From contig CP104013.1 in assembly GCA_025839675.1 (NCBI GenBank), positions 750,001 through 782,000 of the forward strand: a DNA stretch of 32,000 nt, read 5' to 3'. The stretch's first letter is position 1, and every line of letters starts with the position of its first letter. Under the pieces are notes generated by a model that had not been told where the DNA came from, did not search any database, and saw only the letters and a list, made by a program, of their open reading frames with translations. This DNA comes from Candidatus Lokiarchaeum ossiferum. GTDB taxonomy: Archaea > Asgardarchaeota > Lokiarchaeia > Sigyniarchaeales > Promethearchaeaceae. A program made the translations under genes and the position numbers. Below are positions 14,801-32,000 of the stretch, one piece after another.

Positions 14801-17800
14801 ATTCTCTTAGATGGATCGGCTAAAATAAACGGTCTCACATTTGGATCTATTGCTCCAACAAATCTGTATTATCCGGTAATCACCACCAGCGAGAAACATC
14901 TCCAATATTATGATGGAACCAAGTGGCTTACTATGTTTACTTCTGCTTTTCCCTTTACATCTCACCTTTTCTGTGAAAATTTAGACTTGACACCTGCCCA
15001 TGAACTATTATTTGCTATCGAAATACCTGCAGGAACCATCCCTGAAACGGATGTCATTCGAGCGCAGTGGGATGAGGTTGATCTTAAATGGAGAGTTGTA
15101 AGCACGGGTGATTTCTCCGAAATTAAAGAAGTGTTTGATATTCAAACAGGCCATTTAGCTGCCGATAATTATGGACGAGTGATTGTGGCTCGGGGGGATG
15201 AACTGGCGATCCAGCGGTTGGGTGAAAAAGATCTTACATTCCTCTATTCGGATTTTTCCTATGACCCGTATACATCAAGTAGTCCATTCCAAGCTGGAAC
15301 TTTAACGGAAGATGTAGAATTAAGTAGTTCTTCGCTACTTGAAGCAAGGCTGGAAAATTCTAACTCAGATGTAAGCTTCAGTTCGGATTCAAGCTCAGCC
15401 TACAATATTGAATTTGACAGTATTGAGGATCCTGTCCCTACAACCGCATATTCTACAGTTAGTGCCAGTGAATTGCTCCAAAATCCTCTCTCATCGCAGC
15501 AATTAACCACCGGTAATCAAGACGCTCTTAGTACATCTCGGATTCTCGCTCCTTTTACTGGTGGATTTATTAATGATACGGCCGAGACGAAAGCTACGGG
15601 ATTAGAGATGACGGATTTCCGGTATGATTTCCGATCGGGATCGAACTATGATCTGGATCCCACCTTAAATCAAATTGGATATGATGTACTAGCGGATGGA
15701 GGAGTATCTGAAGGATATACATATTCAGATATTGGAATTGAAAATATCCAATCTTCAGGTATTCTGAAAAATTTCGCATTTTATCAAAATTTTGATATAA
15801 ATTGTGGTGATTATGAAACAGATATAGATTATGATGCCAATGGCCAATCCTCCTATTCAGTCACTTCTGAGCCCTTTGATGCTCACAGCAGGTTGGACGC
15901 TTTCCGGTATACACGATCAAATCCCGATGGTGGGTATATAGGGCATGGAAATAGTTATCCTCTCCATAAGGAAGACTATCCTATATTTGCTTATGACCGC
16001 TGCCTCCCTGCATATGGAGAAAAATTACCAGTCGGTAATAATTTTCTTAAAGATGATTTATCAATGACTATCCCCTTGAAATTAAATATTGATGTAAAAA
16101 ACTTCGATGTAGGAGAAGTTCGATTCCAACTTTCTTTAGCAGCTTATTCACATGTATTCTATTCGATTTACACCACTAATGGAGCAACCGATGGCAGATC
16201 AAATATGTATTCGGCAAATTTTGATTTATATTTAGTCTCGGGAGGAAATCGCTTGGAAATCACAGATACGTCATATTGGGCGACTGTGGGACACTATACA
16301 GACAGATTAGTCAGTGGGATAGAATGTTTACCCGTCCAATATTGGGATTTTAATTCACCCAATGTTTGGAAGGGTGTGGATGTACATATCCCTATTGGAG
16401 TCTGGACTGATTATGGGATTGATCCAAATGATTGTAAATTAGAAATTGTCATGACTGACCCCTATTTAAATCATTGCTATCCTCAATACAGTACTGGAGA
16501 AGGGATCTATGATACGAGTTCCTATGAAATTTACAGTATGGTCCGGACATTGATGTATCGGAGTATGATTTTGAAATATTTCCGAGTCTCATACTATCAA
16601 AATCCAAAATCTATAATGAATGGATTTATGACAGACTATGAGCAATTTAGTATATCTAATGGCATCCCAATAAATTTTGTTGCAGGTGAAGGTGATGATC
16701 CTACTGTCTCAGGAGGTCCGATTCAAATTAAGAAAGGAAATACGCTTCCTGAACCAGAGGAAAACGTGGGAAACTTCCAGACAGAATTGGGTGATTTCGA
16801 AAACTTACGGGTGAGTTTGAAAATTAAACCAGTATCTCAACTTTGGTTATCCGATGCGGATACAAGCCCTTTATCAGCACTGCTTAATCCTTTCTCATCT
16901 ACATCACTTTATTCGAACGACTTTCAAATTTCGAGTATTGTCTCGAGCACCCCTTCGTTAGTATCTTTAACAATTAAGTACTATACACCGAGCGGAGATT
17001 CTACTCAAATCCTATATCCCACAGACTGGGAGATGGTTGGAGATTATTTGCAAGGAGATGTTCTCCTTTGGATAGATGATGTATCGACTGAAAAAATTGA
17101 GATTGTTCCGACTCTTCAGTGGTCCGTCACGACATCGATTACTCGTTTAGATTTAGGAGATTATTTCTATCCAAAAACACCCTTAGTGGCAATTCAACGT
17201 ACAATTCCAGCATCCTCAATTCTCGTAGGCACAGCAGGTCAATTGCGAGAAAAAGCACAACTTTCAGATACCCTCATGAGTAAATGGGAATTAGCTCAGG
17301 ATGATAGCTACACTGCATTCTCCACCTTAGAATTTGCAACCGATATGCTGCTTGAAATTCCAAGTATTTTTCCATTGAATCAGCCTCAACAGTTAGAAGT
17401 CGCAATTCCAATAACTCCCGCTTTTAAAGTCTATAATCTTCAAAGTCAGATAATTACTGGAACTACATCCGCTTCAGATATCACCATTAACCCATTTATT
17501 GAGTACACATTGAATGGTATAGAATATATACCTCTTGAAGCGTCAACTCCAGCATCCATCAATGAAGGTATATTGTTATTCCGAATTGATACAATTGATT
17601 ATGGGACTTATTTCGATTTCCGAGAAGGGTATGAGTCACAAGGTTCCACGTTTTTGAATTTCCGGCTAAATATCGATTTAATCTTCCATGATCCTGCTGA
17701 AATGACGATTGCAGGATCCACTGAGTCGTCTATAAAAGCATCCATCACTTTCGGTACCCCTCAGACGACTTTGTTGATGTATAATGCCTATCCTCTAGCG

Positions 17801-20800
17801 ACTGCGGGAGAAAATAATCTCATATATTCTCAGACAATCGAGCTGGAATGCGACACGCAAAGTTCTCTCTTTAATTCAGGAGACGGAAGTTATCGAGGAG
17901 AAATGATTTCAGAATTTTCTGTCGATGCTTCTGAAATAACCAGTTTTGATGGACAACCTTTGCTTAATTTCCCACTGAAGATGGAAATCTCGCGGATTAC
18001 AACCGAAATCACTGCTACCACGACCTATGAAGTTATGTATGATAGCAACGGAGATGGGGATTACCTTGACGCCGATGAATTTCTCTTCTCCAATGAGGAT
18101 GGATCTTTTGATGGATATTATCACTTTGCCTTGAAAGAAGAGCGGGGGCAGACGGATCTTTACCGCACTCAGTTTGAAATCCGTATAACTTCGGTCTATC
18201 AAACCTATGTTGAGACTTCCTCTTTTGTGAATGAATTTAAATTGAATTATTATATTGATAATAATGCAATAATTACTCGAGACGATTTGAATTGGATATC
18301 GGATCAAGATATCCTAGGAGGAACTTTCCTATTTGATTTTGGTCTCCAAAGTACCTCTCAATCTTTTGAACATATTTTACAGTCTAACAATGCCTTAGAA
18401 GATGGAGAAATCGATTTCACCCATTGGGGCGAGTTAGCCTGTGAATTTGCAGTTAATTTACCGATAGATTACACCCAAGAAGATTTGGATGCGATCACCA
18501 TGCTCAATCTGGAAATTGCACCATCCAGTACCATTGTGGCAGAAATATGGACTCATGATGATCCAACCAATATGGTGGATTTAATGGATAATCCTTGGGA
18601 AACATGGGAAAGCGAATTCAATGGAGGTACTCAAATCTTCCAAATTAGGGATAGTGGCCTAACAACATGGACGAATTTAGGTCCCGCAGAAGATCCCGAA
18701 CTAGACGCTCTCTGTTGGGACGAGATGGTAGAATATTGGCTTTCACCCACCACATCCTTAAGTGAATTTGTCCAAGATGGAGGAGGTGTCGATTACTTAG
18801 ATTTCAGGGTAATTTTAGATACGACTAACTTTGGAGAAACCCATGTACCAGACCCCTATGACTCAAGTCGATATTCCATAGATCTCTCGGATGTTCGAGT
18901 ACGGCTATTTACCGAGGATCCCAAAGACGCAATGATTTACACCGCATCGCAAGATCTTGCATGCACTCCAAACGATTATGAGTTTTCCAGCTTAACCGTG
19001 GGAATTGATTCATCCTTGGAGATTGCAGGAAAGTTCGGTATTGGAACAGATGTTTTATTAGAGGATCTTCCAGAAGGAGCCATTATATATTCAAACATTC
19101 AGGCTTCCTTAGCGATTAAACACGATGGAGTTTATGTTGCCTATGGGGAATATACACTCACCCCATTCACAAACACGCAATCGATATTTGCAAACGCCTT
19201 GATAGAAGCAGAAATCCCCTCGATGGCCCAATATAATGCATTTACCAATGATAAAACGACTCCCTTAGAATTTCGAATTACTTGGACTTGGGAATTGGAG
19301 AACACCTATCTCTACCCTGTGCAATTTACCAATACTCAAAATTATCAAATTGATGCTGAAGGTTATTCATGGGATCAAAATAGTACTACACTCGCCCTTA
19401 GTAGCCACGTGTTAAATGTCCATGATTTAGATTTGGACAATGATTTTGATTTGCTGTTAGATGGCGGAAATGGGCTTTTGTTCCAAGAAAACACGGGATA
19501 TTATCCTATGACACTTAGGGCTTATGATGGCTATGATGAATTAATTTGTGAGCAATCCTTCTTCGGTACCCTTGATTCAGGAAGTCCGCATCCAGAACTC
19601 ACGTCTTTGGAAGACCGGATCGGAGATCATTTAATCCCCGAATTCAATACCCTGATGGACTTAGTTATTGTAGATTATTCTCCAGATTTAATGCATTTGG
19701 ATATCTTCTTTTCGGAAGATGGAACGTTTGTGGATATAGATCATGTGGATTATGAAACATCCCATATATTCGGCAACGGGGATTCACTTCCTGTACCAAT
19801 TAATGATTATTTCTATCCGATTTCGCTGGATACAAGCAGTTTTGGAGCCGATGGAATGAAATATTTGAAAATAGTCGGAATTGATAGTGTCGGGAATTTT
19901 GGAGAATATTTTATGGAATTTTGGTATGATCGTCAAGATCCTCTTACCTCGATTAGTTTTTCGCATTCCGATGCATCCAAAGTCTCTTTACAGACCGAGG
20001 TCACCTTACAAATTTCGGATTCAGGCAATGTGGATGAAGCGGGTTCAGTTAAAGAAACCCACTTGAAAATCTGGAATGAAGATCAAACCGTTAGTTATCT
20101 CCATGAGATAATTTCAAAGGAAGAGATTGAAGCTGGAAGTCTTTCCCTTTCCCTATATGAGGATATAATCGTCCCATATAATCTGCAGGCGGATCATTTA
20201 ATGATGGAATATTGGAGTATTGATTTCGCCAGCAATGAAGAAGTGCACCAATGGGAAGATATCATAATTGATGATAGCTACTCTATCCGACTTTACTCGG
20301 ATGAAACCTATTCCACAATCTTAGAGGGAGAAGTATCAGTCCAATATTTAGATCAACTCTTTGGAAAAATCTTGGATACTTTTGATCAGCCCCTACCGTT
20401 CGGATTTGAAGTTGACTTGCACTTAGATGGGTTGAAATATTCAACTATTCACATCTGGAATAATGAAGGGAATTTCAACACCACAATCATCTCAAGTGAA
20501 ATTCAAGGTGAGGATTTACGAACTCTTCCAGGCACCATTATCAACCATAATGGATGGTCTGAGGATCAATATCATGCAGATCGCATAATTGATTTACCAG
20601 TTAGGGGTGAAATCCAAAAAATTGAAACCCAAGGATTATCCCGGTTCTATTATCAAGATGTCAATGATATGGAACTATCCTATTCGAACTTAGATCTTGA
20701 AAATCTCGCAGTTGGGCAAAATTACGAAGGAATTCACTTGGATCTCTTTATTCCTTGGCAATTTAATGATAATGTCGGCACCACTTTTGAGAAAATTCAA

Positions 20801-26800: not shown

Positions 26801-29800
26801 GCCTATCAAAGCCGCACATTCCAGCAGTATGATTGGGATGAGATTAATGTCCATACCAGCATTCCAAGTTATGATGAATTCTTTATTGATAAAGATGGGG
26901 AAGAGCAAAACTATTTCCTGACTAACACAACCGTCTTCGATTGGAGTGAGTGGACTACGGGTTATACCACGTCCTATGATCAAGAAGGTGATGGAGCATG
27001 GGAAAAAGTGATAGATCGTCAAGATCTCTTCCAGAATGATGAATATTACTTGGAAGAGGGATATGACAACTATATTTTCGAAACCTATTCAACCCGATCT
27101 GCGAGTTCCTATGATGTCTATAACGTGACAAATCCTTCGGAAATTTTAGAGACGAAACTCAACGTAACAATCGATTATGGGAATACATTGGTCGAAGACG
27201 CCACCTTCTATCTCTTAGGGGCTGATTCTCCCGATGAATGGCTGACCACAGGCAAGTGTTTGAATAATATCACCGGATCTTTTGTGGTAGAGTACAATGT
27301 GCCGGTCCCAATCGATCCTCGGATTGAAGTGCCAGAATCCATGCGAATTCAAGAAAATGGTCTTATCTATTGGTATAACAGTAATCCCGAAGAAGACAAT
27401 TACTATGAAACTGCGTTTATTATGACCGAAGAGAGTGCTAAGGATAATATTGCAGTTGCGGTTTATATCAGTCGCAGCGGTCGTCAGCAAGTATTAACCG
27501 ATCCCCTTGAATATAAATTGAGTGGTGATGACATCATCGCTTCCCATTGGTTGAATGATGAATATGGCTACGAAGATATCATGGATATTGCGTGGGATAA
27601 TGCCTGGACCAATTATTTAGCCATGCTTGAAACGGAAGAATATATGACCATGAATGTTATTGATACGGCCGCATCCGCAGTACTTCTAGCAGGAACGGCA
27701 TTCGCAGGCAAGTTCATAGCATCAGCAGTCATACTATCGGGGCCCGTAGGTTTGATGGTTGGATTCGGTTTAGCCATTGGCTATGTTGCGGGAATGTTAA
27801 TCTATACAAATTATGTTAGACCTGCCATTGAAGATCTTTTAATTGAGCGAGGTGTGATTGGAGATCGTGCCACCGAAATCGGAAAGAATCCCGATGTGCG
27901 GTTTTGGCAAGATTTTAAAACATTCATCGGTGATGGAACGGAAAATTTGGTTGAATCCTTCTCTATTTTCGCATTACGGGATCCAACTCCTTACTATACC
28001 GAAAAGGCCTACTTCATGGATACCGATCCCTTCACTTTGGATCTGAATCCTGGCATCGCCAATGAAACGTGGAATTATGCTATTGAATATAACGTCCCTC
28101 AATTCTGGGCCCCTCGGGCACGAGATGATTATAAAGGACCCCTTCCTTGGTGGGATAATGTAGCAGCAGCCTTAGATTTAGGAGAGGCAATTAAAAATAC
28201 GGGATTCTTCACCGCTCCGCAATCAACGGAACTTGCCGCCCTTGGAATTAGTCTCGGAGTCGATGATGATGAACGATCCGAAGTTGTGGCCCAACTGTGG
28301 GCTCGAGCGGCCACTTACCGATACCAAGCAGATATGGGATCGGGATATATCGTCAATTCTGAAGCCGAAGCGCTAGAATACTGGATGGTCAAGGCTTTAG
28401 AATATCAAGCCTATCACCGCCGCACTTTGCATCAGTTCTTTTATCGAGATGCTCCATGGGGTAAGGAAGGACTTTGGGATATTGAAGAACATCCTACATG
28501 GAATACTATCAATCATATTGGACATGTTGAATCGACTTTAGCCAGCCATTCATTCTCCAATATGACCCGTCTTGAATATCAAACAGGAGCCTTAGGAGAA
28601 CCGACATTGGTCGCTCGCAAAGATACCACCCTCAATTATAATGATTCGAATATCTACGAAGTCGATTATCAAATCATGTGTTTGCTGTCCAAGTATCAAA
28701 CGGGCTATGCATCGGCCGAAAACTATGATCCTCGCATCTTCTGGAATAATTTAAAGACCCGAGCCATACAAGTGGCCATTGGAATTGCTTCGGCTTGGTG
28801 TGGAGGTGCCCTCGGATTAGCAGTTGGAACCAAACTTGGTTCAACTATTGCCCTCAATTCTTACGTCCAGCAATATTTCGCCGGAACCGTATCTCAACAG
28901 ACCTTAGATCGAATGGTTTCTATTACATTTACCGATGCGTTCCGCCAGACCACAGCTACTATGGCTGCAAATAGTATATTCGGTAAATACTGGTTTGCGG
29001 AACAGATGATCGAAGAATTGGTCTTAGAAAATATTGTTGCTCAAACTGCTTTATTATTTGGCTGTGGAGAAGGTCTTGCTGAACAATTGGGAGAAATATT
29101 TGGCCAAGTTAATATGCTATCATCCTTCTCAGACATATATATGAATGTGAAGCAAGGAATCGGTTTGTTTGGCCAATTAGGTCAGCGTATTTTCAATTCC
29201 CAGCAGAATTCACTCATGGCTTACCGTGCCTCCCAATCCATTGGGCATTCCTTGACCAATATTAAAGGATTATTGGGGATTTCGCAAGATTCCCAGGGTC
29301 ATATTATCATCCAGAAAAATTTGAAAGCCAGTCAAGATGGCGCCATTTCGACCTTGCAAACCGCGCTTCAGGAGAAACTTCTTCAACAACTGCCCTATGC
29401 CAGCGGTGATTTGCTGTGTGAAGATATTCTTCTTGCTATTATGGAAAGATCCATCGATGCCGCCATGCAAGGACCAAATATGGCTACCCATTCGCAAATT
29501 TTGGACACGGTGCAGGCCAGCATTACGAAGGATTTCCCCCAAGTTCAAATTAGTATGCGTCAATTCACGCAGCTCTTTAAGCTGAAGGTCGTCAATAGTA
29601 TCTTGAGTGGATCGAATGACTTGATGAATGTATTGAACGATCAAGATCTCTGGGAACTTGGAGGAGTGGATCTAAACCAAGGCACCTATACCAAGATGCG
29701 GCTAGCCAACCACGGATCGAACGTAGAATTCCATGTGAAATATGATGGCCAAGTAGACAAATATGTTGATGGAGCGCTCGTGGGCACCTACTTTGTGAAC

Positions 29801-31642
29801 GATCTTACGGGCTTGGGGGTGGATCTGCGGAGCTTAGGGCAGGTCTTCACCGAGTTCGACATTGTGGAGATGATTGATCCAAAGGATAATGGTGATTTGG
29901 ATCATGTTATTCAAGTTTTAAAACCGTCCAAAATTTTTGCTCGATTTAGTAGAGATCAAGAAACAACTTCTGTTTACAATCAAGAAATCATTCTCGCAGA
30001 TGGGGCTTCTGATAGGAATGTCCAATTATTTGCAGAAAAAACCATCCATGATGTGATGACCAATAAAGAATTAATCTCTAAAATTTTGTCCGAAGAAGTA
30101 TCAATAAATCCGGATCAAAGTGTGTTAATTGATGAATTTAATCATATTAAGGTCAAAGAATTGATCGAACGGACTCAAAATGTCTGGCGAAAAATGTTTA
30201 TAGCTTGTGATCAACTCCTGTTCAAAGAAGGTAAATCGACTCTCGATGCTAGTAATGAACCTATAAATCAAATAGAATTTGCTAAACAATTCTCCGACTT
30301 ATTTGGAGATAAATTAAAATATGATGCAAATATAATCCAGACATTGCTTGATTTAAGTCAGATTGGAAGAAAAACGATAAGTTCCAATCACATGAAAGCC
30401 TATCGGGCTGATGAGTTTGTTCTACTTCATAATGAAATGCTTTCTTTTCTGGGAAATGCAAATCCTGATTCTCCGCTAAAACTGACTCGCGACCGATTAG
30501 ATTATATTAGACAAAAGGACACTTTTTCGAGTTCCCTTACCATTTTTGAGGCTCTCATGTTGGATCAAATGAATCGCTATCTTGGTAACATGTTTATATC
30601 AGAAGGTGCCTTCTATGACTGGATGAGCACAGGTTGGGTGGAGTTAAAAAGTGATTTTAATTATCGGCAATGGAATGCGCGCAGTGCCCCTCTCTTCCTC
30701 AACCATTACCAAGAAATGATCTTCTATGATGCTACCAAGGCAAAAACCGCCACCCTGACTCTAACGATCAATGGGCAACCCGTCCCTGTGAAAGTGGAGT
30801 GTGATTCCTATTTCGAAAAGAGGTTAGTCGATACTATTGGGGACCTAATGAAGACCTATCCAGCCGCCAATGAACGCTTTTCACGGGTGTTTGGTAGTGA
30901 AATTTTCAAGCATTTGCCCCATAACCTTTTGGCGACGGTGCAAAAACAAGTTATTACGCGCGGAGGTATCAGGATGGCACGATATGATCCTGATATAATT
31001 GCTGCTTACACGGGTGAATCAGTTTTCGGAATATTGCAATCCATTGGAACACTTGCGTTTACTACCTCCTCAGAATTGAAAGAGGGAAAAATCTATCTGG
31101 ATTTAGGGCTCGTGTTTGGGGCCGTGGATGAATTTCGGGGAGTAATGATCGAAGCCTTAGGGTATGACGACTATGATCAATATGGGCAGCATTATGGGGA
31201 GAAAAAGGATAACTCGGCTCTGGCCTTGTTGGACGCCCACTTCGCCCAGATCTATGTGGCGCGGGAACAGGCCCGTGATGGCGATCCTGAATCACTCTAT
31301 ACATGGTATCAGAAAAATGCGAAATATATTGGGAAGAATGCGCCATTGCTCACCGAAAGCCAATATAAGCTGTTGATGGAACTCATAATGAAGAATCCGA
31401 ATGTACCCTTTGAAGAGCTGATGTTAAATCTAGCAGATAATTTTGAAGCTTATGGATTTCAGGATATTGAATCTGCCAAAGCATTTCAAAAAATATTTGG
31501 AATTGAAAAAGGTCCTCTTGGATATAAGAGTAATGAAAAAATGGATCCATGGTGGACTAATTATCAGAATTCCAAGCAAGGGATGATAGATGGGAGAATT
31601 AATTTGATTAATTCCCAATTGCATTACTTTTGGAGGAAATAA
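2843..31642 (+). CDS. Giant polytopic cell-surface protein (9,599 aa), adhesin/tether-like; multi-domain, no named family recognised for the whole protein
   Basis: Uninterrupted 28,800-nt ORF in AT-rich DNA. All other frames over the same span are broken into ORFs of 138 codons or fewer. SD upstream, stop TAA at 31640-31642, T8 immediately after. The internal architecture is given in the sub-features below. Confidence 0.95.
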   Translation: MMKKKTHNLKSDFISKFTHKIASFGGICAILLLIIVSAPLENPTASESVVYNPSSSTYQYNYGERPPIIAWNITSLKMGDFSYLIRNETSVLQTGRLSKLGVLRFQTPSVPCGIYNYTLDIYEHEKIISSHTIWVSVINDLPTFENVVYEDQYEFGSKFNMIQWNLIDRFIDRGYYEIFDGFGSKSTRKLARYDLISPNATINYYFPDLEIGDHLIRLEYYDGLGGSKISQIPISILPDLDPRITAKIPNDIEQGHNFTATYTLKDYIYGDGSYNLYLNGTLQEQGNWNQSLHITPEINSSDLGLGTTQLIFEYTTRVENRTDPFNLTYFTEIYYHKSFITIHNNLCPEISGEIDTTKESTTFVWTIYDAKFGPSANYRITYQGTEMAWGNITDINLFTDKEGCIVKYVLPHYLTAKTNLGLELVVEDGFGNSTSNYLEILSNYEEKTPIYLSSSIKLDKPPSDSGIPLLILAIAIGALICSEIWGKMQKKTRRLVMSIAAMGLLGFNLDLITGSAFFGGASPISFFEISPGYSEDAASGWDTNQTEFTIRVFDTLHYEFYLPEDAIVEPIITNELGYDIPIPSQFYEAGMQSGEIYMDPKRYINITSGFENVTEIQNSLNFLPNHQYTITLNTYRPDELYDVLSGWSDTYTFTVMKAKSAITFEKIGGYDKGLSMVDYTNDPLNSRVLYRYECTLSNAFSNDALYNELVHIYQLNHNSELYESLDEISTNLEGKISIGETRYAKDIDAAEFYYPGNEFYESDLEQDSIDVNHILSPFDYTHPEEELLTEGESSHMFDDSSTSTSYTGVNKKVSWGQNITDTQGFLLTEPTFQAPQPQFGVIPNVGMYVGTVSNYSGSCIIMSSSIYVYSDSVDYANLTLRFQNIWQRNGLSDDLSEGNVQLRAILFDDLLNIQEIVPLYDGFLKSYQTQTISFNPDNFQEVSQIYIGIWVEIIAPTCHIGYDSADEVYVIFSDFELDIRYPPAIGSAGHLTNWETYYLEANTKGMDVFVGEHDLTFTTTSGRADEGTLGQLAAIGEMKLQNPIDFTSTSVESSIIQFTSDGVIRQMIFDGDDGSSSYNLYLTPVYSDGSRGSVMSLQSATIESNSSTISVILSLNDYIGEVISHWILTGEFNIPSTSHGLPDLVEIFLSNPQIQVNGVAINLVDVSDPDPVPDYYLSRTVEPIPSDPPQYLPDSEGFLRDHCVAGPFFVTTQVWEEYETITGEFIDPTRDYQPGEFTVPNTPALPNSDPKLWEYVHSNKMHMKYNSYYNINDFCVAYSSFYVYISEFTPNLYIRGGSDESSRYYWDSEEIYYSHERRTLDIKTSEEEHDIIHLTNITQGYHKVLIMTEEYDSLWRYRVRFSLTPGSGDATYTPVHNIHFTHERPESDPRFTSITMDTQIQKSPRITPNRDSLIFSPNPQRVKEGTYAEMTVKSFIANGTALSGTLFNGSLAMNLQGFVDLAEWTADSVGVNASLTFELFAKNDLGNYVREFDTLLWTDLLSDITALSLTVENITVELAPVFANFSSPDRLLQEYFIRFKMIMVAEDDGTIPANLGVEISKLSLVLNDLEPVADWININDGELLSGIKNLSVVGVSRDIDMVRFLGSYDNGLTTYPIGEVYYNPATMADWVFTYAFDTDHHPIFHNDTENFTLIAELMDDYYSVELTMITGLKIDNTPPDLQIRNVNSNDLLTEPVWIEIDTEATDIEYIDLYLDSYNDTELIESQLLTTLTDGTGGWLYYLDPSLYPSREYNIKAVATDRTFEESLQGNAELTNVEFARVSPFFIGTSPLNGSEISDSVTFEFQASTTLISHIDIAVSTTATQDLSQTDFMPQTTLNGDASDLYSYIFDSTTVYGEDCEAWHYLQFDFWIDAYKETYYYLLFINNQPPLISMDFEPSTNFLAQTYSYELLNNVVDGLLTHEILTIFNQSTLQLDIDHSFTEDIAVLEYYVNVFDQTYQNLSDPLANQLNYDMITTDLQFSPSIEGYGLEDGYSYFRDLSQGILWTLTQLQENIENDTIYDAGDIFDRASECAYLGYVEQFTTMIPAHYIKDADHAIVAQFEALFSTLYNDLTYIDTLAALVDAKEQNIIDKEIEILSAELALANAIDDLSILNSELAALNAQLASNQTLLSSTQDYLSQKQADLVAAEVARDDPLTGVDALWELIVLKESYYDSNASRATAITNSDSTGLRGIAKNEWDSAEAMLALWQDYYNWNDSRQLAISDSDFTGLRGLAYDEWQTAQTTLDLWQGYYAANMSLQTELGDDQVGLIADALNDWNALENELTLWQTYQSWNISRLNEIGSDDYQGDRGTMWLIIQSIEDDLNFWISERDNYYDRAVNQITDSDSSGERGAAKDVWDAALLALSNKEAELVSWEANLATYGDNESGLIGDKKTEWDAAIAEVIYWQGEVNAQAIIVNTEIAERDQLYDDVQNRLSIASSILSTINAWEASLTALEADLVDLIQICDDLQDLADYYLQRRNDFTPGSSGWNYWEDMWFDTLFELYRAQRDVTDCENSITALENAIGVDTGYYATSTAKWKEYRYYKGDINLLNPVQVYEDYIYQANTVVPNVQIVLSSYQNSLDSSIASATIKEMEYDALVAYRDNTILINIASIQAEINDTSEGSLQDAINDAAAAYNALIDEYNSIMDQPDGFYWICVATIGDESIGLVKDLNDAYDYRQSLIDEYDYIYNIALPLCDDTINNPSTGLITLASTAETYYNSLNATLVGVNADIAYCVTIIGGTSSGLIQDRDQKFAFYNSLVAEYLAITENGGNLDICTAQIVAYIVLSDQEEQKYLDLIAEYNLIMTVILPTLDDEINNPTTGLYALRQALFDTISVLNGEIAGILADISTLEGIIYSIENDITIKTSEISAQEGVQASIEADIIGLYSDLDVLNSELNTLEDQYKQESLLKLDHAYNFMYLVLQPKLTGLNYNILDDSLASFTSQSLLTYTGGTPNWNPTLDISSIPDGFIAIGIYAEDTAGNSINITTPTYFLDKGSPDVSLFYPISDSQVEVEKNLGVDEYNMLTFAFWVQDQDVKKINLQSMVIFNEFMAQDLSDYICRINPGEISQITLFFNQSESNLLFDQFVESPWIEVTVECEDYFGKKTTFTTQFQAVEQVDTKNPVINEIILPDSQNIYTGGFDVWINATDPNNGTGVRFVDLWMDKMDSDLTPESLVFLIDQWQQDQLPEDHMLLTNYLGMITDPEVSGLYYLNPFEMSGRFANLTSGEHTFYIRVFDYNYNYVTYSFSRTIIMPEINISPNEIICTEGENKELSIFLKNFGNQIANVTFELMFADALDQNPENGFIPLWSLTDVNGTDGWNVTFALIPEQDFYLNYRIVQMDNSIISSVTHQEFLTQIARVLFPEYSGNETYIDSAYAKHRFTVDDTTPHDITINLGDDMILNDEWTLESFWFGNYTTQKVEVFLDDEIVGEFNATEDILDKSTPLYKDTTPIDSQTGETFVLNPYDETTGEYLIDDGEYEMVVKVTFLNGKSATSNPISIIIDTSSPEFQEDGIYLNGGSTTDYEWVDDTYLVFTNETVDIVIHARDDVTDITAINLTLGTSLDPADDVVTMEIFGTDLNLWWDGSVQEQLRVNMSALGLADGKYYLRVEIFSGGGVQMDQSFAIAYDTDAPLGYFSNPAQYTIYTQDHIELFYTCATESPFGTAHIQSVTFYMQLMDTHENITLGTSSVPIQIHTDGSQTFATLFTNPQAYQETITFWVSIHDEAGNAQWNITTTEHEISTYQIMLDGFTNVLPMIPNEAITGSLNGYFEFQTDPQKLDVSMELLVNDVPIEDLVTFDPKGLDEDEDFAIEWNARLIPEQLKEVKIPFNFLEYSSASLNPDPSTDKQAWGFFNSSDRPSVAYVSQQQLHIFIPELLEESVNFFNWVHLSLPIPLDPVLQMEAFDWNADGQDEIAILTATSLIMVWNEDEIWAYIPLDLSLQNVDQFCIGGANIYLANQNELLIYTKDTDSSLNLIDTILLDGSAKINGLTFGSIAPTNLYYPVITTSEKHLQYYDGTKWLTMFTSAFPFTSHLFCENLDLTPAHELLFAIEIPAGTIPETDVIRAQWDEVDLKWRVVSTGDFSEIKEVFDIQTGHLAADNYGRVIVARGDELAIQRLGEKDLTFLYSDFSYDPYTSSSPFQAGTLTEDVELSSSSLLEARLENSNSDVSFSSDSSSAYNIEFDSIEDPVPTTAYSTVSASELLQNPLSSQQLTTGNQDALSTSRILAPFTGGFINDTAETKATGLEMTDFRYDFRSGSNYDLDPTLNQIGYDVLADGGVSEGYTYSDIGIENIQSSGILKNFAFYQNFDINCGDYETDIDYDANGQSSYSVTSEPFDAHSRLDAFRYTRSNPDGGYIGHGNSYPLHKEDYPIFAYDRCLPAYGEKLPVGNNFLKDDLSMTIPLKLNIDVKNFDVGEVRFQLSLAAYSHVFYSIYTTNGATDGRSNMYSANFDLYLVSGGNRLEITDTSYWATVGHYTDRLVSGIECLPVQYWDFNSPNVWKGVDVHIPIGVWTDYGIDPNDCKLEIVMTDPYLNHCYPQYSTGEGIYDTSSYEIYSMVRTLMYRSMILKYFRVSYYQNPKSIMNGFMTDYEQFSISNGIPINFVAGEGDDPTVSGGPIQIKKGNTLPEPEENVGNFQTELGDFENLRVSLKIKPVSQLWLSDADTSPLSALLNPFSSTSLYSNDFQISSIVSSTPSLVSLTIKYYTPSGDSTQILYPTDWEMVGDYLQGDVLLWIDDVSTEKIEIVPTLQWSVTTSITRLDLGDYFYPKTPLVAIQRTIPASSILVGTAGQLREKAQLSDTLMSKWELAQDDSYTAFSTLEFATDMLLEIPSIFPLNQPQQLEVAIPITPAFKVYNLQSQIITGTTSASDITINPFIEYTLNGIEYIPLEASTPASINEGILLFRIDTIDYGTYFDFREGYESQGSTFLNFRLNIDLIFHDPAEMTIAGSTESSIKASITFGTPQTTLLMYNAYPLATAGENNLIYSQTIELECDTQSSLFNSGDGSYRGEMISEFSVDASEITSFDGQPLLNFPLKMEISRITTEITATTTYEVMYDSNGDGDYLDADEFLFSNEDGSFDGYYHFALKEERGQTDLYRTQFEIRITSVYQTYVETSSFVNEFKLNYYIDNNAIITRDDLNWISDQDILGGTFLFDFGLQSTSQSFEHILQSNNALEDGEIDFTHWGELACEFAVNLPIDYTQEDLDAITMLNLEIAPSSTIVAEIWTHDDPTNMVDLMDNPWETWESEFNGGTQIFQIRDSGLTTWTNLGPAEDPELDALCWDEMVEYWLSPTTSLSEFVQDGGGVDYLDFRVILDTTNFGETHVPDPYDSSRYSIDLSDVRVRLFTEDPKDAMIYTASQDLACTPNDYEFSSLTVGIDSSLEIAGKFGIGTDVLLEDLPEGAIIYSNIQASLAIKHDGVYVAYGEYTLTPFTNTQSIFANALIEAEIPSMAQYNAFTNDKTTPLEFRITWTWELENTYLYPVQFTNTQNYQIDAEGYSWDQNSTTLALSSHVLNVHDLDLDNDFDLLLDGGNGLLFQENTGYYPMTLRAYDGYDELICEQSFFGTLDSGSPHPELTSLEDRIGDHLIPEFNTLMDLVIVDYSPDLMHLDIFFSEDGTFVDIDHVDYETSHIFGNGDSLPVPINDYFYPISLDTSSFGADGMKYLKIVGIDSVGNFGEYFMEFWYDRQDPLTSISFSHSDASKVSLQTEVTLQISDSGNVDEAGSVKETHLKIWNEDQTVSYLHEIISKEEIEAGSLSLSLYEDIIVPYNLQADHLMMEYWSIDFASNEEVHQWEDIIIDDSYSIRLYSDETYSTILEGEVSVQYLDQLFGKILDTFDQPLPFGFEVDLHLDGLKYSTIHIWNNEGNFNTTIISSEIQGEDLRTLPGTIINHNGWSEDQYHADRIIDLPVRGEIQKIETQGLSRFYYQDVNDMELSYSNLDLENLAVGQNYEGIHLDLFIPWQFNDNVGTTFEKIQITFINQSEEDDSLNIEWKYTLDQNDLAELFVANQQPLVWGNNLVNYIPVDINFAELMAYGMFYEIPFDFATVDEIVITGYRNPTHPSFSLTDPTSSSLTLICGEIRLVDLLNDATTYYQENPLGIERPYIYNGQIAGNFFNSLSISSPNTLRFNHKDLPVMSAVLEEGDAIYSDSITVSAISFGGENLPETTHMISDYLKLTARNASMDMIDVGMPTHDGAPSSLAFTLVQKPDNYTHLTLNYSGNSLFNSIASQINASLVLQKENLVLDFENVPLTDAYTMHILRNTTRSFNGIIKDDDESVPIYFVPHSQLISYPLYSFDSSSWVWKQDITVEDTSIRLGAKTGINTYQWFDYQEGNIASFNFTMDNQEGGNIPFTPQTIICAVNYPGNDFYKNTTREFNIEIHPLEVQLVPNAITFDLSEEKLSIDEDGRISDATWTFTDDNLYSFSLKDQYSTPLQEKPVWMSIGVLPKGASLPYDFTNPADSYVAQYLGSAGNPSQELLNLMIYQDYTGVPQIYPFVDEQDNDAIKMFAPLYYQMGLTDENGSVSFLLEGNIFAQVLDNWNRYIFAGGSLEDVNLYMRVFYDNQFNSESMKIATEYMLDQEYEVVFGGNEEFVYNQNTTQWGTYEIEGNAEYFDSNYASTYAHGIVNFRKEDLVLVSGYFEPKNPDDFTVGVQLMEADIVGSDDTGFSLIPEEEGKSSNLLDLTGITFPDEFSILMEIFDQSGTSKVIDGRYQLGEYVDNIQLMDPEGSALFNVNEDIFGPQFQRLVPNVYTIQYSLSSLESYSKMYNLPNSTTCQLVIKSPYTYTLDYPSHIYSLPNMVMSDTEMNVAYGNGTEYWSHMNFDHGYPIITADLLIRNTTDYIPNYNLTDVINVQFNINGMEYEYYFSLNTSEYIDEEGIYHAGDDYTFEIPVKFLDGMRPNISVYTSLEFTPENNINWSQVEMDYIDQYIDQETGIVDWAEWEEWEESNMTKAYEEYRLGASYEVIMENFTLHESTLRTDGQSWQFSQEFADGDSNNDHQWQYNDETMPTFETDISTDQYTTTLGEHTALDFDEDSIPDEFVSIAVSENQVCTTFDSSDTIIDWQEDRIEFMQNMTFNTTFTLNNFFTVEQKTKNLTQPFNLRSETYQTYEGFLFPSLDEESEIITWDHSLRSGAYWTDVAHIEDKDLISVGLHEGESTCLIRDNLYMPYNGAVDWDFRIPNVNNYDLGSLPSSDLEFIINFTLVKNMQNGPIQWTQILELSPLTGIIEGNNLAFKEVGFDIPDLYCSEWIDLELNITLKNAPSTNLEKVMLLKGMITGDETIYRISNEFPTKLRAKLFSANFLYFFTQRALTEEIGATRNTYEFYSGDPENRPADDIFFSLEQCDEPYAKDLVSMVEVWDWDIYQANPDRYIQVENWEFDEETRTYTEIEELFAPQSTSTYAEFGLDDPFGVSMLKLRLDDTFLETLTSFEKYSMFVDLHNVPGDLYASRPIPSIIVNDPANFLARQKITLLVQPSTWDQTPQRSILSSENSGSSISTDVSSKNINMSAEENTVFESQLIYYMDEQSSDIAINDWSQTHVKSDSTVDPSELTDDLDRLMYDDNETISYVEEIDFSHEPLLVDMHPYFTLGDRLYSAEMQARFSMNISQIYRGNPWFDWLEIPFLLDSVAFVDWIEVSYVTTSGTTRTLITYSDLESIQFTGDDLTYAIPDGDIIDTVMFKFQLAMHLDKSLVPNMTLMGLGLFRDSSVGELTIEVEAEDETTEIQRIDLLPTFCYSPMLPKGDRIPFSFTDNGQNKILKSISISTPVVSNTDMYLYGLNLIKMTETDDSWEADPIYTYSFDKRSRDYQNMMLSFYANDVGLPTWNDPAGALRVENIPWVSQVSYDIDGDMIYDLTITQSDGEGKGDELAGYYGQQIIFEKIVDLDGSMTLHQTLSSGTPYTYFENGVKDTITYDFGADGTDELMRKWDTEIVTYNITEENSYETPYHFISRTQIVSFEELIDQTGDGKFNFRQRAYQSRTFQQYDWDEINVHTSIPSYDEFFIDKDGEEQNYFLTNTTVFDWSEWTTGYTTSYDQEGDGAWEKVIDRQDLFQNDEYYLEEGYDNYIFETYSTRSASSYDVYNVTNPSEILETKLNVTIDYGNTLVEDATFYLLGADSPDEWLTTGKCLNNITGSFVVEYNVPVPIDPRIEVPESMRIQENGLIYWYNSNPEEDNYYETAFIMTEESAKDNIAVAVYISRSGRQQVLTDPLEYKLSGDDIIASHWLNDEYGYEDIMDIAWDNAWTNYLAMLETEEYMTMNVIDTAASAVLLAGTAFAGKFIASAVILSGPVGLMVGFGLAIGYVAGMLIYTNYVRPAIEDLLIERGVIGDRATEIGKNPDVRFWQDFKTFIGDGTENLVESFSIFALRDPTPYYTEKAYFMDTDPFTLDLNPGIANETWNYAIEYNVPQFWAPRARDDYKGPLPWWDNVAAALDLGEAIKNTGFFTAPQSTELAALGISLGVDDDERSEVVAQLWARAATYRYQADMGSGYIVNSEAEALEYWMVKALEYQAYHRRTLHQFFYRDAPWGKEGLWDIEEHPTWNTINHIGHVESTLASHSFSNMTRLEYQTGALGEPTLVARKDTTLNYNDSNIYEVDYQIMCLLSKYQTGYASAENYDPRIFWNNLKTRAIQVAIGIASAWCGGALGLAVGTKLGSTIALNSYVQQYFAGTVSQQTLDRMVSITFTDAFRQTTATMAANSIFGKYWFAEQMIEELVLENIVAQTALLFGCGEGLAEQLGEIFGQVNMLSSFSDIYMNVKQGIGLFGQLGQRIFNSQQNSLMAYRASQSIGHSLTNIKGLLGISQDSQGHIIIQKNLKASQDGAISTLQTALQEKLLQQLPYASGDLLCEDILLAIMERSIDAAMQGPNMATHSQILDTVQASITKDFPQVQISMRQFTQLFKLKVVNSILSGSNDLMNVLNDQDLWELGGVDLNQGTYTKMRLANHGSNVEFHVKYDGQVDKYVDGALVGTYFVNDLTGLGVDLRSLGQVFTEFDIVEMIDPKDNGDLDHVIQVLKPSKIFARFSRDQETTSVYNQEIILADGASDRNVQLFAEKTIHDVMTNKELISKILSEEVSINPDQSVLIDEFNHIKVKELIERTQNVWRKMFIACDQLLFKEGKSTLDASNEPINQIEFAKQFSDLFGDKLKYDANIIQTLLDLSQIGRKTISSNHMKAYRADEFVLLHNEMLSFLGNANPDSPLKLTRDRLDYIRQKDTFSSSLTIFEALMLDQMNRYLGNMFISEGAFYDWMSTGWVELKSDFNYRQWNARSAPLFLNHYQEMIFYDATKAKTATLTLTINGQPVPVKVECDSYFEKRLVDTIGDLMKTYPAANERFSRVFGSEIFKHLPHNLLATVQKQVITRGGIRMARYDPDIIAAYTGESVFGILQSIGTLAFTTSSELKEGKIYLDLGLVFGAVDEFRGVMIEALGYDDYDQYGQHYGEKKDNSALALLDAHFAQIYVAREQARDGDPESLYTWYQKNAKYIGKNAPLLTESQYKLLMELIMKNPNVPFEELMLNLADNFEAYGFQDIESAKAFQKIFGIEKGPLGYKSNEKMDPWWTNYQNSKQGMIDGRINLINSQLHYFWRK
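2912..2962 (+). other. N-terminal signal-anchor or signal-peptide hydrophobic segment
   Basis: MMKKKTHNLKSDFISKFTHKIAS (basic n-region) is followed by FGGICAILLLIIVSAPL and then ENPTASES. Confidence 0.7.
3029..4180 (+). repeat. Four tandem ~95-aa beta-sandwich-type modules (protein-level repeat), densely decorated with N-x-S/T sequons
   Basis: A motif recurs once per module: IAWNITS..GDFSYLIRNE; IQWNLIDRFIDRGYYEIFDG; TATYTLKDYIYGDGSYNLYLNG; FVWTIYDAKFGPSANYRITYQG. The last module ends in VEDGFGNST. I hand-counted 12 N-x-S/T sequons among about 30 Asn in aa 41-465. Confidence 0.55.
4241..4402 (+). other. Membrane hairpin: TM helix, basic loop, then a second hydrophobic segment that looks like an internal signal peptide
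   Basis: IPLLILAIAIGALICSEIWG (4241-4300), then KMQKKTRRL, then VMSIAAMGLLGFNLDLITGSAFFGG (4328-4402). Met488 (ATG 4304) is followed by an A9 tract (4308-4316). Confidence 0.6.
6656..6931 (+). other. PA14-like / jelly-roll lectin-like segment (tentative)
   Basis: NDFCVAYSSFYVYISEFTPNLYIRGGSDESSRYYWDSEEIYYSH...HLTNITQGYHKVLIMTEEYDSLWRYRVRFSL follows the PA14 pattern: F..Y i....G.Y.f....DD....w.dg, then L..G..y.i.i.y.e, then l.w. This is pattern-level only. Confidence 0.3.
9356..10075 (+). repeat. Trp-rich ~40-aa tandem repeat family A, six units (protein level)
   Basis: The six units are: YYDSNASRATAITNSDSTGLRGIAKNEWDSAEAMLALWQD / YYNWNDSRQLAISDSDFTGLRGLAYDEWQTAQTTLDLWQG / YYAANMSLQTELGDDQVGLIADALNDWNALENELTLWQT / YQSWNISRLNEIGSDDYQGDRGTMWLIIQSIEDDLNFWISERDN / YYDRAVNQITDSDSSGERGAAKDVWDAALLALSNKEAELVSWEAN / LATYGDNESGLIGDKKTEWDAAIAEVIYWQGE. 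They sum to 240 aa, which equals 720 nt exactly. Confidence 0.8.
10709..11425 (+). repeat. ~40-aa tandem repeat family B, six units, with recurring Cys (protein level)
   Basis: The six units are: DTSEGSLQDAINDAAAAYNALIDEYNSIMDQPDGFYWICVATIG / DESIGLVKDLNDAYDYRQSLIDEYDYIYNIALPLCDDTIN / NPSTGLITLASTAETYYNSLNATLVGVNADIAYCVTIIG / GTSSGLIQDRDQKFAFYNSLVAEYLAITENGGNLDICTAQIVAYIV / LSDQEEQKYLDLIAEYNLIMTVILPTLDDEIN / NPTTGLYALRQALFDTISVLNGEIAGILADISTLEGII. They sum to 239 aa, which equals 717 nt. Confidence 0.65.
11700..14110 (+). repeat. Array of Ig-like (bacterial Ig / Big-type) beta-sandwich domains
   Basis: Domain-start motifs D-x-x-x-P recur at 11843 (DKGSP), 12218 (DTKNP), 13016 (DDTTP), 13373 (DTSSP) and 13748 (DTDAP). 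Domain-end motifs of the D-x-AGN type also occur (AEDTAGNS ~11791, HDEAGNA ~14035). The same motifs appear outside the array at 7865 (DNTPP) and 19928 (DRQDP, preceded by GIDSVGNF). Confidence 0.55.
14470..15225 (+). other. FG-GAP / integrin-alpha-like beta-propeller-type segment (tentative)
   Basis: Canonical Ca-loop D-x-N-x-D-G-x-x-E-I (FDWNADGQDEIAIL, 14579-14605), followed by strand-like blades (SLIMVWNED, ANIYLANQNELLIYT, LYYPVITTSEKHLQYYDG, HELLFAIE, GRVIVARGDELAIQR). A degenerate second loop lies elsewhere (HDLDLDNDFDLLLDGGNG, ~19420-19475). Confidence 0.4.
15266..15540 (+). other. Ser/Thr-rich low-complexity linker
   Basis: PYTSSSPFQAGTLTEDVELSSSSLLEARLENSNSDVSFSSDSSSAYNIEFDSIEDPVPTTAYSTVSASELLQNPLSSQQLTTGNQDALSTS. 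Confidence 0.6.
18041..18076 (+). other. EF-hand/dockerin-like 12-residue Ca-binding loop
   Basis: DSNGDGDYLDAD fits D-x-N-x-D-G-x-(aromatic)-x-x-x-D. Confidence 0.5.
26411..27016 (+). repeat. Four spaced D-x-x-x-D-G/M-x-(aromatic/aliphatic) loops; putative Ca-binding repeat module near the membrane
   Basis: DIDGDMIYD (26411), DFGADGTDE (26618), DQTGDGKFN (26762), DQEGDGAWE (26978). They are spaced 48-72 aa apart. Confidence 0.45.
27668..27805 (+). other. Pair of adjacent C-terminal transmembrane helices
   Basis: AASAVLLAGTAFAGKFIASAVIL (27668-27736), then SGP, then VGLMVGFGLAIGYVAGMLIY (27746-27805). Confidence 0.7.
28763..28855 (+). other. Third C-terminal hydrophobic (Gly/Ala-rich) segment, possible TM helix
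   Basis: AIQVAIGIASAWCGGALGLAVGTKLGSTIAL, preceded by NNLKTR. Confidence 0.5.
28856..31639 (+). other. ~928-aa C-terminal domain of unknown function, probably cytoplasmic
   Basis: No N-x-S/T sequon among 52 Asn (hand count). Composition shifts to K/R/Q/L-rich, helical-looking sequence. I found no Walker A, HExxH or other catalytic motif. Confidence 0.5.
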
Positions 31643-31674: not shown

Positions 31675-32000
31675 ATGAATCAACACAATTTAAAAGGGAT
31701 TTTACCCCCATATAATGAGGTATCAGAAGAAAAACAAAAATTCCTTGTATCTATTAAGGATATTATCTTAGATGCTTGGGAAATTTCAAAAAATGGACAT
31801 CTGATGGTCTATATTGATGAGGAAAAAATCATCAGGCAATTGACAATCGAAATGAAAGAATCATCCAAACAAGCGGAAATTGCCACTTTAATTGATAAAA
31901 TCCCCCATCATTTCAAACATCTTAATAAATTAATCCTAAATGTTGTTGGGATGGAAAAAATTCCCTTATGGCTTTCTGAACTTCACAATCTTCAACTTCT
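31675..32000 (+). CDS. Leucine-rich-repeat-like protein, 5' fragment; continues beyond the window
   Basis: Frame 1 is open for 108 codons from ATG 31675 to the window end: MNQHNLKGILPPYNEVSEEKQKFLVSIKDIILDAWEISKNGHLMVYIDEEKIIRQLTIEMKESSKQAEIATLIDKIPHHFKHLNKLILNVVGMEKIPLWLSELHNLQL. The last ~26 aa fit an LRR unit (LxxLxLxxxxxxxIPxxLxxLxxLxL). It is absent from the ORF track because it has no stop in the window. Confidence 0.6.
   Translation, partial: MNQHNLKGILPPYNEVSEEKQKFLVSIKDIILDAWEISKNGHLMVYIDEEKIIRQLTIEMKESSKQAEIATLIDKIPHHFKHLNKLILNVVGMEKIPLWLSELHNLQL

Follow-up and report, generated by a model that had tools for sequence, protein, structure and literature searches.

A giant surface protein of Candidatus Lokiarchaeum ossiferum carries a polymorphic C-terminal module that appears to be exchanged together with a neighbouring leucine-rich repeat gene

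Contig CP104013.1 of Candidatus Lokiarchaeum ossiferum (GenBank assembly GCA_025839675.1) contains, between positions 750,001 and 782,000 of its forward strand, an open reading frame (ORF) encoding a giant protein of 9,599 amino acids (aa). We analyzed this whole stretch of 32,000 nucleotides (nt), called the window here, and count positions from its first letter. The giant ORF (2843-31642) lies on the + strand, as do all of its parts described below. Its final 928 aa (codons 8672-9599, nt 28856-31639), here called the tail, had been singled out in an earlier reading of the DNA (the original prediction) as a sequon-free region of unknown fold and a candidate intracellular effector or anchoring domain. 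A gene for a leucine-rich repeat (LRR) protein begins 32 nt past the stop codon of the giant ORF, and its first 108 codons fall within the window (31675-32000, + strand). Sequence comparison indicates that the C-terminal module of the tail is exchanged and inherited together with this neighbouring LRR gene, in a cultured close archaeal relative of eukaryotes.

The tail reads as a real, conserved coding region. Between the window and the orthologue on L001, a metagenomic contig, nonsynonymous divergence (dN) is far below synonymous divergence (dS). The C-terminal peptide quoted in the original prediction matches the translation exactly, with nt 28856 at codon 8672, and the compositional features described there were all recovered. 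The tail has no N-x-S/T sequon where about 6.0 are expected (composition shuffles, P ~0.001), and it is richer than the ectodomain in lysine, arginine, glutamine and leucine (5.8, 3.4, 6.9 and 10.6% versus 2.2, 2.3, 4.2 and 9.1%), with lysine and arginine together reaching 9.3% versus 4.5%. Scanning the tail for motifs gave no Walker A (P-loop), HExxH, GGDEF or kinase HRD motif, as had been judged by eye. The impression of a helical region was mostly right, with 58% helix in an AlphaFold2 (AF2) model of the whole tail, but 10% of the model is strand and three alpha/beta islands are present. Additionally, the tail proved to be a module distinct from the ectodomain, as proposed, but not a featureless anchor: it consists of a conserved membrane-proximal part, a boundary domain and a polymorphic C-terminal region.

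Searches of Pfam, NCBIfam, PADLOC and PDB sequences left the tail without a match, in keeping with the earlier statement that its fold and family could not be assigned. Scans of the giant protein, the tail, the alternative C-termini and the stand-alone homologues against Pfam, NCBIfam and PADLOC likewise returned nothing relevant. The phmmer and profile matches among PDB sequences, TrwL (E 0.69) and scaffoldin (E 0.38), were discarded as chance. Homologues were sought by an exhaustive HMMER search of 1.84 billion representative proteins, which yielded 22 matches with E values down to 6e-64; 21 are genuine, and the remaining one, a fish Ig-repeat protein (P0015), was discarded as a spurious low-complexity match. 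A word-indexed search of 5.8 billion proteins with a profile of the C-terminal (CT) domain gave only 4 close matches, and no relative turned up in two scans of contigs from GTDB genomes or in a scan of JGI metagenomes. Across these searches and the topology analysis below, we found no clear homology to a known extracellular domain, no evidence that the tail is outside and no common domain of known function.

Conservation begins ahead of the tail (alignment A2). The conserved block opens with a 45-aa hydrophobic stretch (aa 8278-8322, 27674-27808) that could form one or two spans and is followed by a positive flank starting RP. It continues through a conserved domain of 318 aa (aa 8323-8640, 27809-28762; lysine plus arginine 8.5%), which matches P0002 and P0017 at E 1e-35, then through a conserved Gly-zipper, QxAIGIAxGxAG (aa 8641-8662, 28763-28828), and a conserved helical membrane-proximal segment (aa ~8710-8790, 28970-29212), the point at which the stand-alone homologue P0011 begins. 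Further on lies the boundary domain, a conserved alpha/beta domain of ~110 aa (aa 8903-9014, 29549-29884; alignment A6) modeled with a predicted local distance difference test score (pLDDT) of 62-89. Two homologues, P0004 and P0013, start inside this domain, and the breakpoints of cassettes and alleles cluster here. The domain ends in FDIVEMIDP (29855-29881, aa 9005-9013), exactly at the point where alleles and cassettes diverge. This motif occurs once in the giant protein and is present in every orthologue in the form [FYA]D-x4-(M/L)(I/V)DP. By analogy with the DPxGL motif of Rhs proteins, its Asp-Pro bond could be a candidate processing site.

After the boundary domain comes a poorly conserved, mostly helical stretch for which the model is of low confidence. 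A small beta-hairpin plus helix with the motif C-D-S-x-x-E-K follows (aa 9296-9361, 30728-30925; pLDDT 82-92), and this element is conserved in P0002, P0004, P0008, P0014 and P0019. The CT domain itself comprises ~190 aa (aa 9406-9595, 31058-31627) and is modeled at a pLDDT of 79 overall and >90 in the core. Within it (alignments A1 and A5), E9437 and K9455 are invariant, D9420 is nearly invariant, and the motifs YY, IGxxAPLLTxxQ, FG and WWxN are also conserved.

Foldseek searches with AF2 models of the tail, as the original prediction had advised, returned PD-(D/E)xK nucleases recurrently, but all matches were non-significant and no fold could be assigned. The weak matches among PDB structures were AF1548/1y88, FokI, MunI and EcoO109I. 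Those in BFVD were phage endodeoxyribonuclease I (E 0.036, probability 0.72), DUF2726, a PD-(D/E)XK protein and VRR-NUC. In the model, the first half of the CT domain is arranged strand-strand-helix-strand, an order compatible with the alpha-beta-beta-beta-alpha-beta core of the PD-(D/E)xK toxins (Tox-REase-1 to -10), with the conserved Asp on strand 1, the Glu on strand 2 and a conserved Lys. In contrast, its conserved helical half (IGxxAPLLT, FG, WWxN) is without counterpart in PD-(D/E)xK proteins.

The exchange is most readily seen on L001, where the CT profile matched three small proteins. This contig carries a 10,073-aa giant orthologue followed by an array of CT fragments and LRR genes. 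The order is LRR1, a CT fragment, LRR2, a longer CT fragment with an in-frame stop, LRR3, a 3'-truncated CT fragment and, at the end, an 861-aa tail fragment that begins inside the boundary domain. All three LRR ORFs are intact (329-356 aa). The first and third CT fragments start at VDEFRG and are without the first strand, which bears the conserved Asp. Within the array, the variable block consists of the last ~120 aa of the CT domain and the first ~230 aa of the LRR protein, and its flanks are near-identical (~190 nt of the CT domain on one side; the last ~100 LRR codons in LRR2 and LRR3 on the other), with dS of 0.05-0.28 in the flanks versus 0.7-2 inside the block. The dN/dS ratio is up to ~0.9 in the variable part of the LRR protein and ~0.2-0.35 in that of the CT domain.

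The giant gene of the window is a mosaic relative to that of L001. Over the 5 kb upstream of aa ~8960, the two share 64-72% nt identity and dS is saturated. At aa ~8966 dS falls about tenfold, and from there to aa 9465 the proteins are 87-97% identical with dS of 0.03-0.49. The window and L001 thus have a large cassette in common (29738-31278), mostly at 82-100% nt identity: in its first ~40 nt identity rises from 70% to 82%, and nt 29779-31278 are 82-100%, mostly 90-100%, identical to the L001 main gene. Within the cassette, a constant CT segment (31088-31278) is ~97-98% identical to both the L001 main copy and orphan 2, and orphan 1 matches it only from nt ~31124. This segment is the likely substrate of recombination. 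The variable CT segment, the last ~120 codons (aa 9480-9599, 31279-31639), is 64-78% identical to the L001 expressed copy versus 97-100% identical to silent cassette 2 (orphan 2), with only 3 aa different. The 97-100% identity runs on through the spacer and the first 108 LRR codons, which are 98-100% identical to LRR3. By these identities, the window carries in the expressed position a CT/LRR pair that is present in the L001 strain as a silent cassette.

A short-read contig from the same organism (L009, Logan SRR22273277_78) breaks off within the constant CT segment, at nt ~31189. A stop at this position is expected, because the segment, if repeated downstream, would break assembly. Repeats are abundant at the 3' ends of such giant genes, and short-read assemblies will probably stop short or collapse where the cassettes are arrayed.

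The original prediction had named the downstream LRR protein as a candidate for co-folding with the tail, and the switching of the CT domain together with the LRR gene identifies it as the relevant partner. The 108 partner residues inside the window comprise just the non-LRR N-terminal part; in the full-length partners of L001, L002, L004, L005 and L010, LRR_14 and LRR_8 score far above their cut-offs. A CT-family sequence followed by an LRR gene was found in 5 independent loci (the window, L001, L002/L003, L004 and L005). As had been suggested, we also looked for stand-alone homologues of the tail and at their neighbours, and found tail and LRR pairs. Two such homologues, P0011 (951 aa) and P0004 (918 aa), are complete genes without ectodomain or transmembrane (TM) segment and have divergently oriented upstream neighbours. 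P0011 starts just past the Gly-zipper position and P0004 in the boundary domain. Additionally, an annotated L. ossiferum protein, P0001, is a CT homologue at ~70% identity. In L011, the gene at 3795-4520, which follows that of the stand-alone CT-family protein P0008, has sub-threshold ankyrin matches (E 7e-4 to 9e-3) and may represent a third kind of repeat-protein partner.

A replacement of larger extent is found in two other Lokiarchaeial assemblies. P0017 (L010 229-4191) and P0026 (L006 7778-30133) share 92.9% identity over 1,105 aa before continuing into unrelated C-termini, the divergence starting immediately past the MIDP motif. The 7,451-aa giant P0026 is followed by a WD40 gene and P0017 by a large LRR gene. 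L006 also contains, after the WD40 gene, a degenerate orphan tail copy that is 85.6% identical in protein. Two motifs noticed by eye in these C-termini, a deaminase-like HxE...PCx8C in P0017 and a papain-like QxC...DPxDG in P0026, have no Pfam support and were set aside.

We regard the tail as intracellular, because its partners and its stand-alone homologues are soluble proteins without signals and because the flank of the hydrophobic stretch is positive. This topology, assumed in the original prediction, is the better supported of the two by sequence features. Neither the stand-alone tails nor the LRR and WD40 partners have a hydrophobic segment fit for a signal or anchor. Positive charge follows aa 8322 (RP...R...R...K) in each of the four orthologues, and at the equivalent of aa 8278-8322 P0017 has just 31 hydrophobic residues, as read from the sequence. 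The composition of the tail is far nearer to that of cytoplasmic proteins than to that of the ectodomain, and its charge balance is like that of cytoplasmic proteins of the same genomes, from which secreted substrate-binding proteins (SBPs) are not very different. The absence of sequons, on the other hand, is a weak marker of topology, since aa 4251-5500 of the ectodomain are also sequon-free. The Gly-zipper is a marginal TM segment (Hessa dG +2.3), in which Q, A-I-G-I and one G are invariant in alignment A2 and within which the L001 orthologue has an Arg. Because it is marginal, the cytoplasmic region may start already at aa 8323. Residues 8323-8640 could be either outside, with two spans in the hydrophobic stretch and the Gly-zipper as a third, or inside, with one span and a non-spanning Gly-zipper; with the inside option, the intracellular region may comprise ~1,277 aa.

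The remainder of the giant protein is predicted from hydropathy to have a signal-anchor TM segment (aa 17-45), a TM-like hairpin at aa 462-514 (aa 462-488 and 494-514) and an ectodomain reaching to aa 8277. The Pfam scan gave no domain in any part of the 9,599 aa, and self-blastp gave no internal repeats apart from a Trp-rich stretch at aa 2174-2412. That stretch (9362-10078) consists of ~40-aa repeats (G-L/E-R-G...W...W..YY) within a long helical region. Over the whole ectodomain, sequons occur at chance (83 versus 75 expected). Their distribution is uneven: 1,250 aa (aa 4251-5500, 15593-19342) contain 0 versus 11.5 expected from composition, and the ectodomain outside this stretch is slightly enriched. 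Between the signal-anchor and the hairpin (aa 46-461, 2978-4225) there are 12 sequons versus 4.7 expected, and by this count the region looks like a separate, heavily glycosylated extracellular module.

Upstream of the giant gene are the C-terminal end of an OppA-type SBP and a winged-helix regulator. The SBP (58-612) terminates in a hydrophobic anchor and then a Lys/Arg/Glu-rich tail, and its gene belongs to a run of SBP paralogues (five in B36, L008). The regulator protein is 100% identical in Ca. Lokiarchaeum ossiferum strain B36 (CP163304, described in a preprint), with 99% identity in the surrounding DNA. The regulator is also unchanged in an assembly of run SRR22273277 from Logan whose sequence matches the window at 100% across 11.7 kb. 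Synteny with B36 ends at ~1920, and in B36 the giant gene is not beside the regulator. The homology stops inside the 3' end of an Arf-like GTPase gene of B36. The giant-gene locus is a strain-level synteny break; this does not prove that the gene is absent from B36, because the two L. ossiferum strains are reported to differ by 12 rearrangements (preprint). The 1.1 kb upstream region (1722-2842) has ~25% G+C, and there is no tRNA in the window.

The locus fits best as an archaeal variant of the polymorphic effector and cognate-binder kind, and we favor, with modest confidence, a system of this kind that is probably toxin/immunity-like. Because the genetic logic is that of polymorphic toxin/immunity systems, we take the CT domain to be the effector. 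A giant surface protein anchored in the membrane would end inside the cell in the tail, which is composed of the conserved membrane-proximal part, the boundary domain of ~110 aa with (M/L)(I/V)DP at its end and a polymorphic region that would act as the effector. The terminal ~190 aa of that region would be the cognate of the cytoplasmic LRR protein whose gene starts 32 nt downstream, and the two would bind physically. The effector, possibly a divergent PD-(D/E)xK-type nuclease, would be toxic unless restrained by its cognate repeat protein. Silent cassettes of a truncated CT sequence and an intact partner gene, arrayed downstream, would allow homologous recombination to install new specificities, and entire C-terminal regions could be replaced from the boundary domain onward. 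Intact orphan LRR genes would then protect against the variants of related strains. As for delivery to another cell, we speculate that membrane contact or fusion of the protrusions of these cells could place the tail in the cytoplasm of a recipient.

Polymorphic toxin systems were defined by Zhang, de Souza, Anantharaman, Iyer and Aravind (2012, Biol Direct 7:18, PMC3482391) by a C-terminus that diverges abruptly between close alleles, a neighbouring gene that changes along with it, silent cassettes truncated at the 5' end, each with an intact partner gene, and a conserved boundary motif. The same work counts LRR, ankyrin and HEAT repeat proteins among the immunity classes, describes ten clades of restriction endonuclease (REase) toxins and finds classical polymorphic toxin systems rare in archaea (PMC3482391). 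The view in the original prediction that the layout is not known from any described prokaryotic system is therefore only half right, since a variable C-terminus, a co-varying neighbour and silent cassettes are the genetic layout of these systems (PMC3482391). The Lokiarchaeal locus shares with them a large surface protein with a constant body and abruptly diverging C-termini, a downstream partner gene that switches with the CT domain (LRR in 5 loci; WD40 versus LRR in P0026 versus P0017), silent 5'-truncated CT cassettes with intact partners downstream and a conserved boundary motif before the variable part. It differs in having no FHA, RHS, VENN, PAAR, LXG or DUF4157 parts and no recognised secretion partner at this locus; components of type V, VI and VII secretion systems (T5SS, T6SS, T7SS) and of Photorhabdus virulence cassettes (PVC) were not found within the window. 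It also differs in being Lokiarchaeal, with the CT domain behind a membrane span and presumably on the cytoplasmic side, and in that the CT family and boundary domain are new and the small-cassette variants are alleles of one family.

The textbook cases of polymorphic toxins are CdiA-CT/CdiI of contact-dependent growth inhibition (CDI) and the orphan arrays of Rhs. Unlike CDI loci (CdiB/CdiA/CdiI), the locus has no FHA Pfam match in 9,599 aa, no VENN motif and no transporter gene nearby. Unlike Rhs/YD-repeat toxins, it has no RHS Pfam match, and (M/L)(I/V)DP stands in place of PxxxxDPxGL, which is absent. In the outer-membrane-exchange SitA toxins and in Proteus IdsD/IdsE, a polymorphic cargo and its cognate binder decide kin compatibility, and the cargo passes between cells by contact or exchange of membranes, without a dedicated injection machine. 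All are bacterial, either lipoproteins or cargo of the T6SS, and unrelated in sequence and architecture; the analogy extends to a possible delivery route only.

Among archaea, the VARTIG proteins of Thermococcales were likened to polymorphic toxin systems by their authors, with function unknown (Makarova, Wolf, Karamycheva and Koonin 2021, PMC8416519). They resemble the present protein in being large archaeal surface proteins whose C-terminal part is hypervariable by recombination and is followed by variable downstream genes. However, VARTIG proteins have Ig domains, including the hypervariable C-terminal one, whereas no Ig-type Pfam domain occurs in the giant protein, in which the variable part is non-Ig and intracellular, with an LRR or WD40 partner and silent cassettes. 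Giant genes of Asgard archaea have been described by Wu et al. (2022, PMC8813620; the aloposon Otus/Ephialtes) and by West-Roberts et al. (2023, bioRxiv). They have in common with the locus an ORF of ~10,000 aa without annotated domains at a strain-variable site. The aloposon of Heimdallarchaeum differs by its tandem giants, tRNA integration and four upstream genes including MinD/ParA, versus a single giant gene, an SBP and a winged-helix regulator upstream, and neither MinD/ParA nor tRNA here. A polymorphic tail or an LRR partner is not described in the two papers on Asgard giant genes (Wu et al. 2022; West-Roberts et al. 2023), and no description of a polymorphic toxin system in Asgard archaea was found in the literature searched.

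Several observations weigh against a toxin/immunity-like system. With one or more membrane spans ahead of it, the CT domain appears to face the cytoplasm of the producer, and archaea have no known route for its delivery. Neither a toxic activity nor a known toxin domain was detected in Pfam, NCBIfam and PDB searches, and all fold matches are non-significant, the best at E 0.036. With hhalign, a single helix was aligned to E. coli Vsr and P. furiosus Hjc (both sequences entered by hand) at a probability of <1%. Because this is noise level, we keep the possible nuclease assignment as a lead and not a result. The lysine position of an ExK motif (E+2) is an invariant Leu, and the conserved Lys is not at the canonical site. 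Variation among the small cassettes is allelic, within one family (~70-98% aa identity), and does not involve unrelated toxins, and in the variable part of the CT domain, with its dN/dS of ~0.2-0.35, positive selection is not measurable since dS is saturated. The orphan array was observed in a single metagenomic contig, with one degenerate remnant in a second. Stand-alone tail and LRR pairs without an export or anchor part (L002, L005) fit an intracellular pair better, and three loci with shorter CT-family proteins (L007, L011, L012) have no adjacent LRR gene.

We nevertheless rank the toxin/immunity-like system above three alternatives, because intact orphan LRR genes beside decayed CT fragments fit protection against the variants of neighbours. 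The first alternative, which we consider unlikely, is an abortive or defence switch acting in cis: the ectodomain would sense attack or contact, such as the attachment of a virus, and the LRR-restrained CT domain would be released or activated in the same cell, so that the polymorphism would mirror an arms race with viral counter-measures. The predicted cytoplasmic location of both tail and LRR protein agrees with such a switch, as do the stand-alone pairs lacking a surface part, the use of LRR and WD40 proteins as typical sensor scaffolds and the break in synteny that separates the two L. ossiferum strains at the locus. However, there is no PADLOC family match, a signalling or NTPase domain was not found, and a cis switch offers no obvious reason for several intact orphan LRR genes beside decayed CT fragments.

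Less likely still is a non-toxic cytoplasmic adaptor pair, in which the CT domain would dock an LRR scaffold that links the adhesin to the cytoskeleton or to signalling, and in which the cassettes would be functionless, decaying remains of segmental duplication. An adaptor would account for the lack of a catalytic motif or toxin homology and for purifying selection on the variable part of the CT domain; LRR and WD40 proteins are common adaptors, and cryo-tomograms show layered surface membrane proteins on protrusions (preprint). It fits poorly with the joint replacement of CT domain and partner by unrelated sequences in 93%-identical alleles, with LRR orphan ORFs that stay intact while the CT fragments decay, and with an orphan-type cassette in the expressed position of another strain. 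We also found nothing pointing to mechanical anchoring or outside-in signalling, the two functions that the original prediction had put forward for the tail. Finally, an extracellular tail, with a two-span hairpin at aa 8278-8322, a non-spanning aa 8641-8662 and cassettes that give pilS/vls-type surface variation, for example to escape viruses, is very improbable: the marginal Gly-zipper with its Arg in L001, the 45-aa stretch that could form a hairpin, the sequon-free zone in the undoubted ectodomain and silent-cassette recombination as a hallmark of antigenic variation would suit it, but the co-varying partners and stand-alone tails have no signal peptide or TM segment, the positive flank is found in all four orthologues, with 31 hydrophobic residues there in P0017, and the tail composition is much nearer to that of cytoplasmic proteins than to that of the ectodomain.

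A toxin/immunity-like system can be extended, tentatively and with more doubt than belief, to contact-dependent kin discrimination or antagonism among Lokiarchaeia. A megadalton adhesin would carry swappable intracellular effectors neutralised by eukaryote-style LRR, WD40 and perhaps ankyrin proteins, and the cytoplasm of a neighbour would be reached by membrane contact or by fusion of cell protrusions, not through a secretion machine. If true, this would be without precedent among polymorphic toxin-type systems in having a toxin that is embedded in the membrane and faces the cytoplasm, and it would give a function to part of the LRR/WD40 expansion in Asgard genomes. Should the pairing of CT domain and LRR protein prove to be one of toxin and immunity or of identity, it would define the boundary domain with (M/L)(I/V)DP and the CT domain as two new families, and it would offer a first molecular handle on interactions of self and non-self in the lineage closest to eukaryotes. 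Since L. ossiferum is in culture as two strains whose synteny breaks at this locus, the idea is directly testable.

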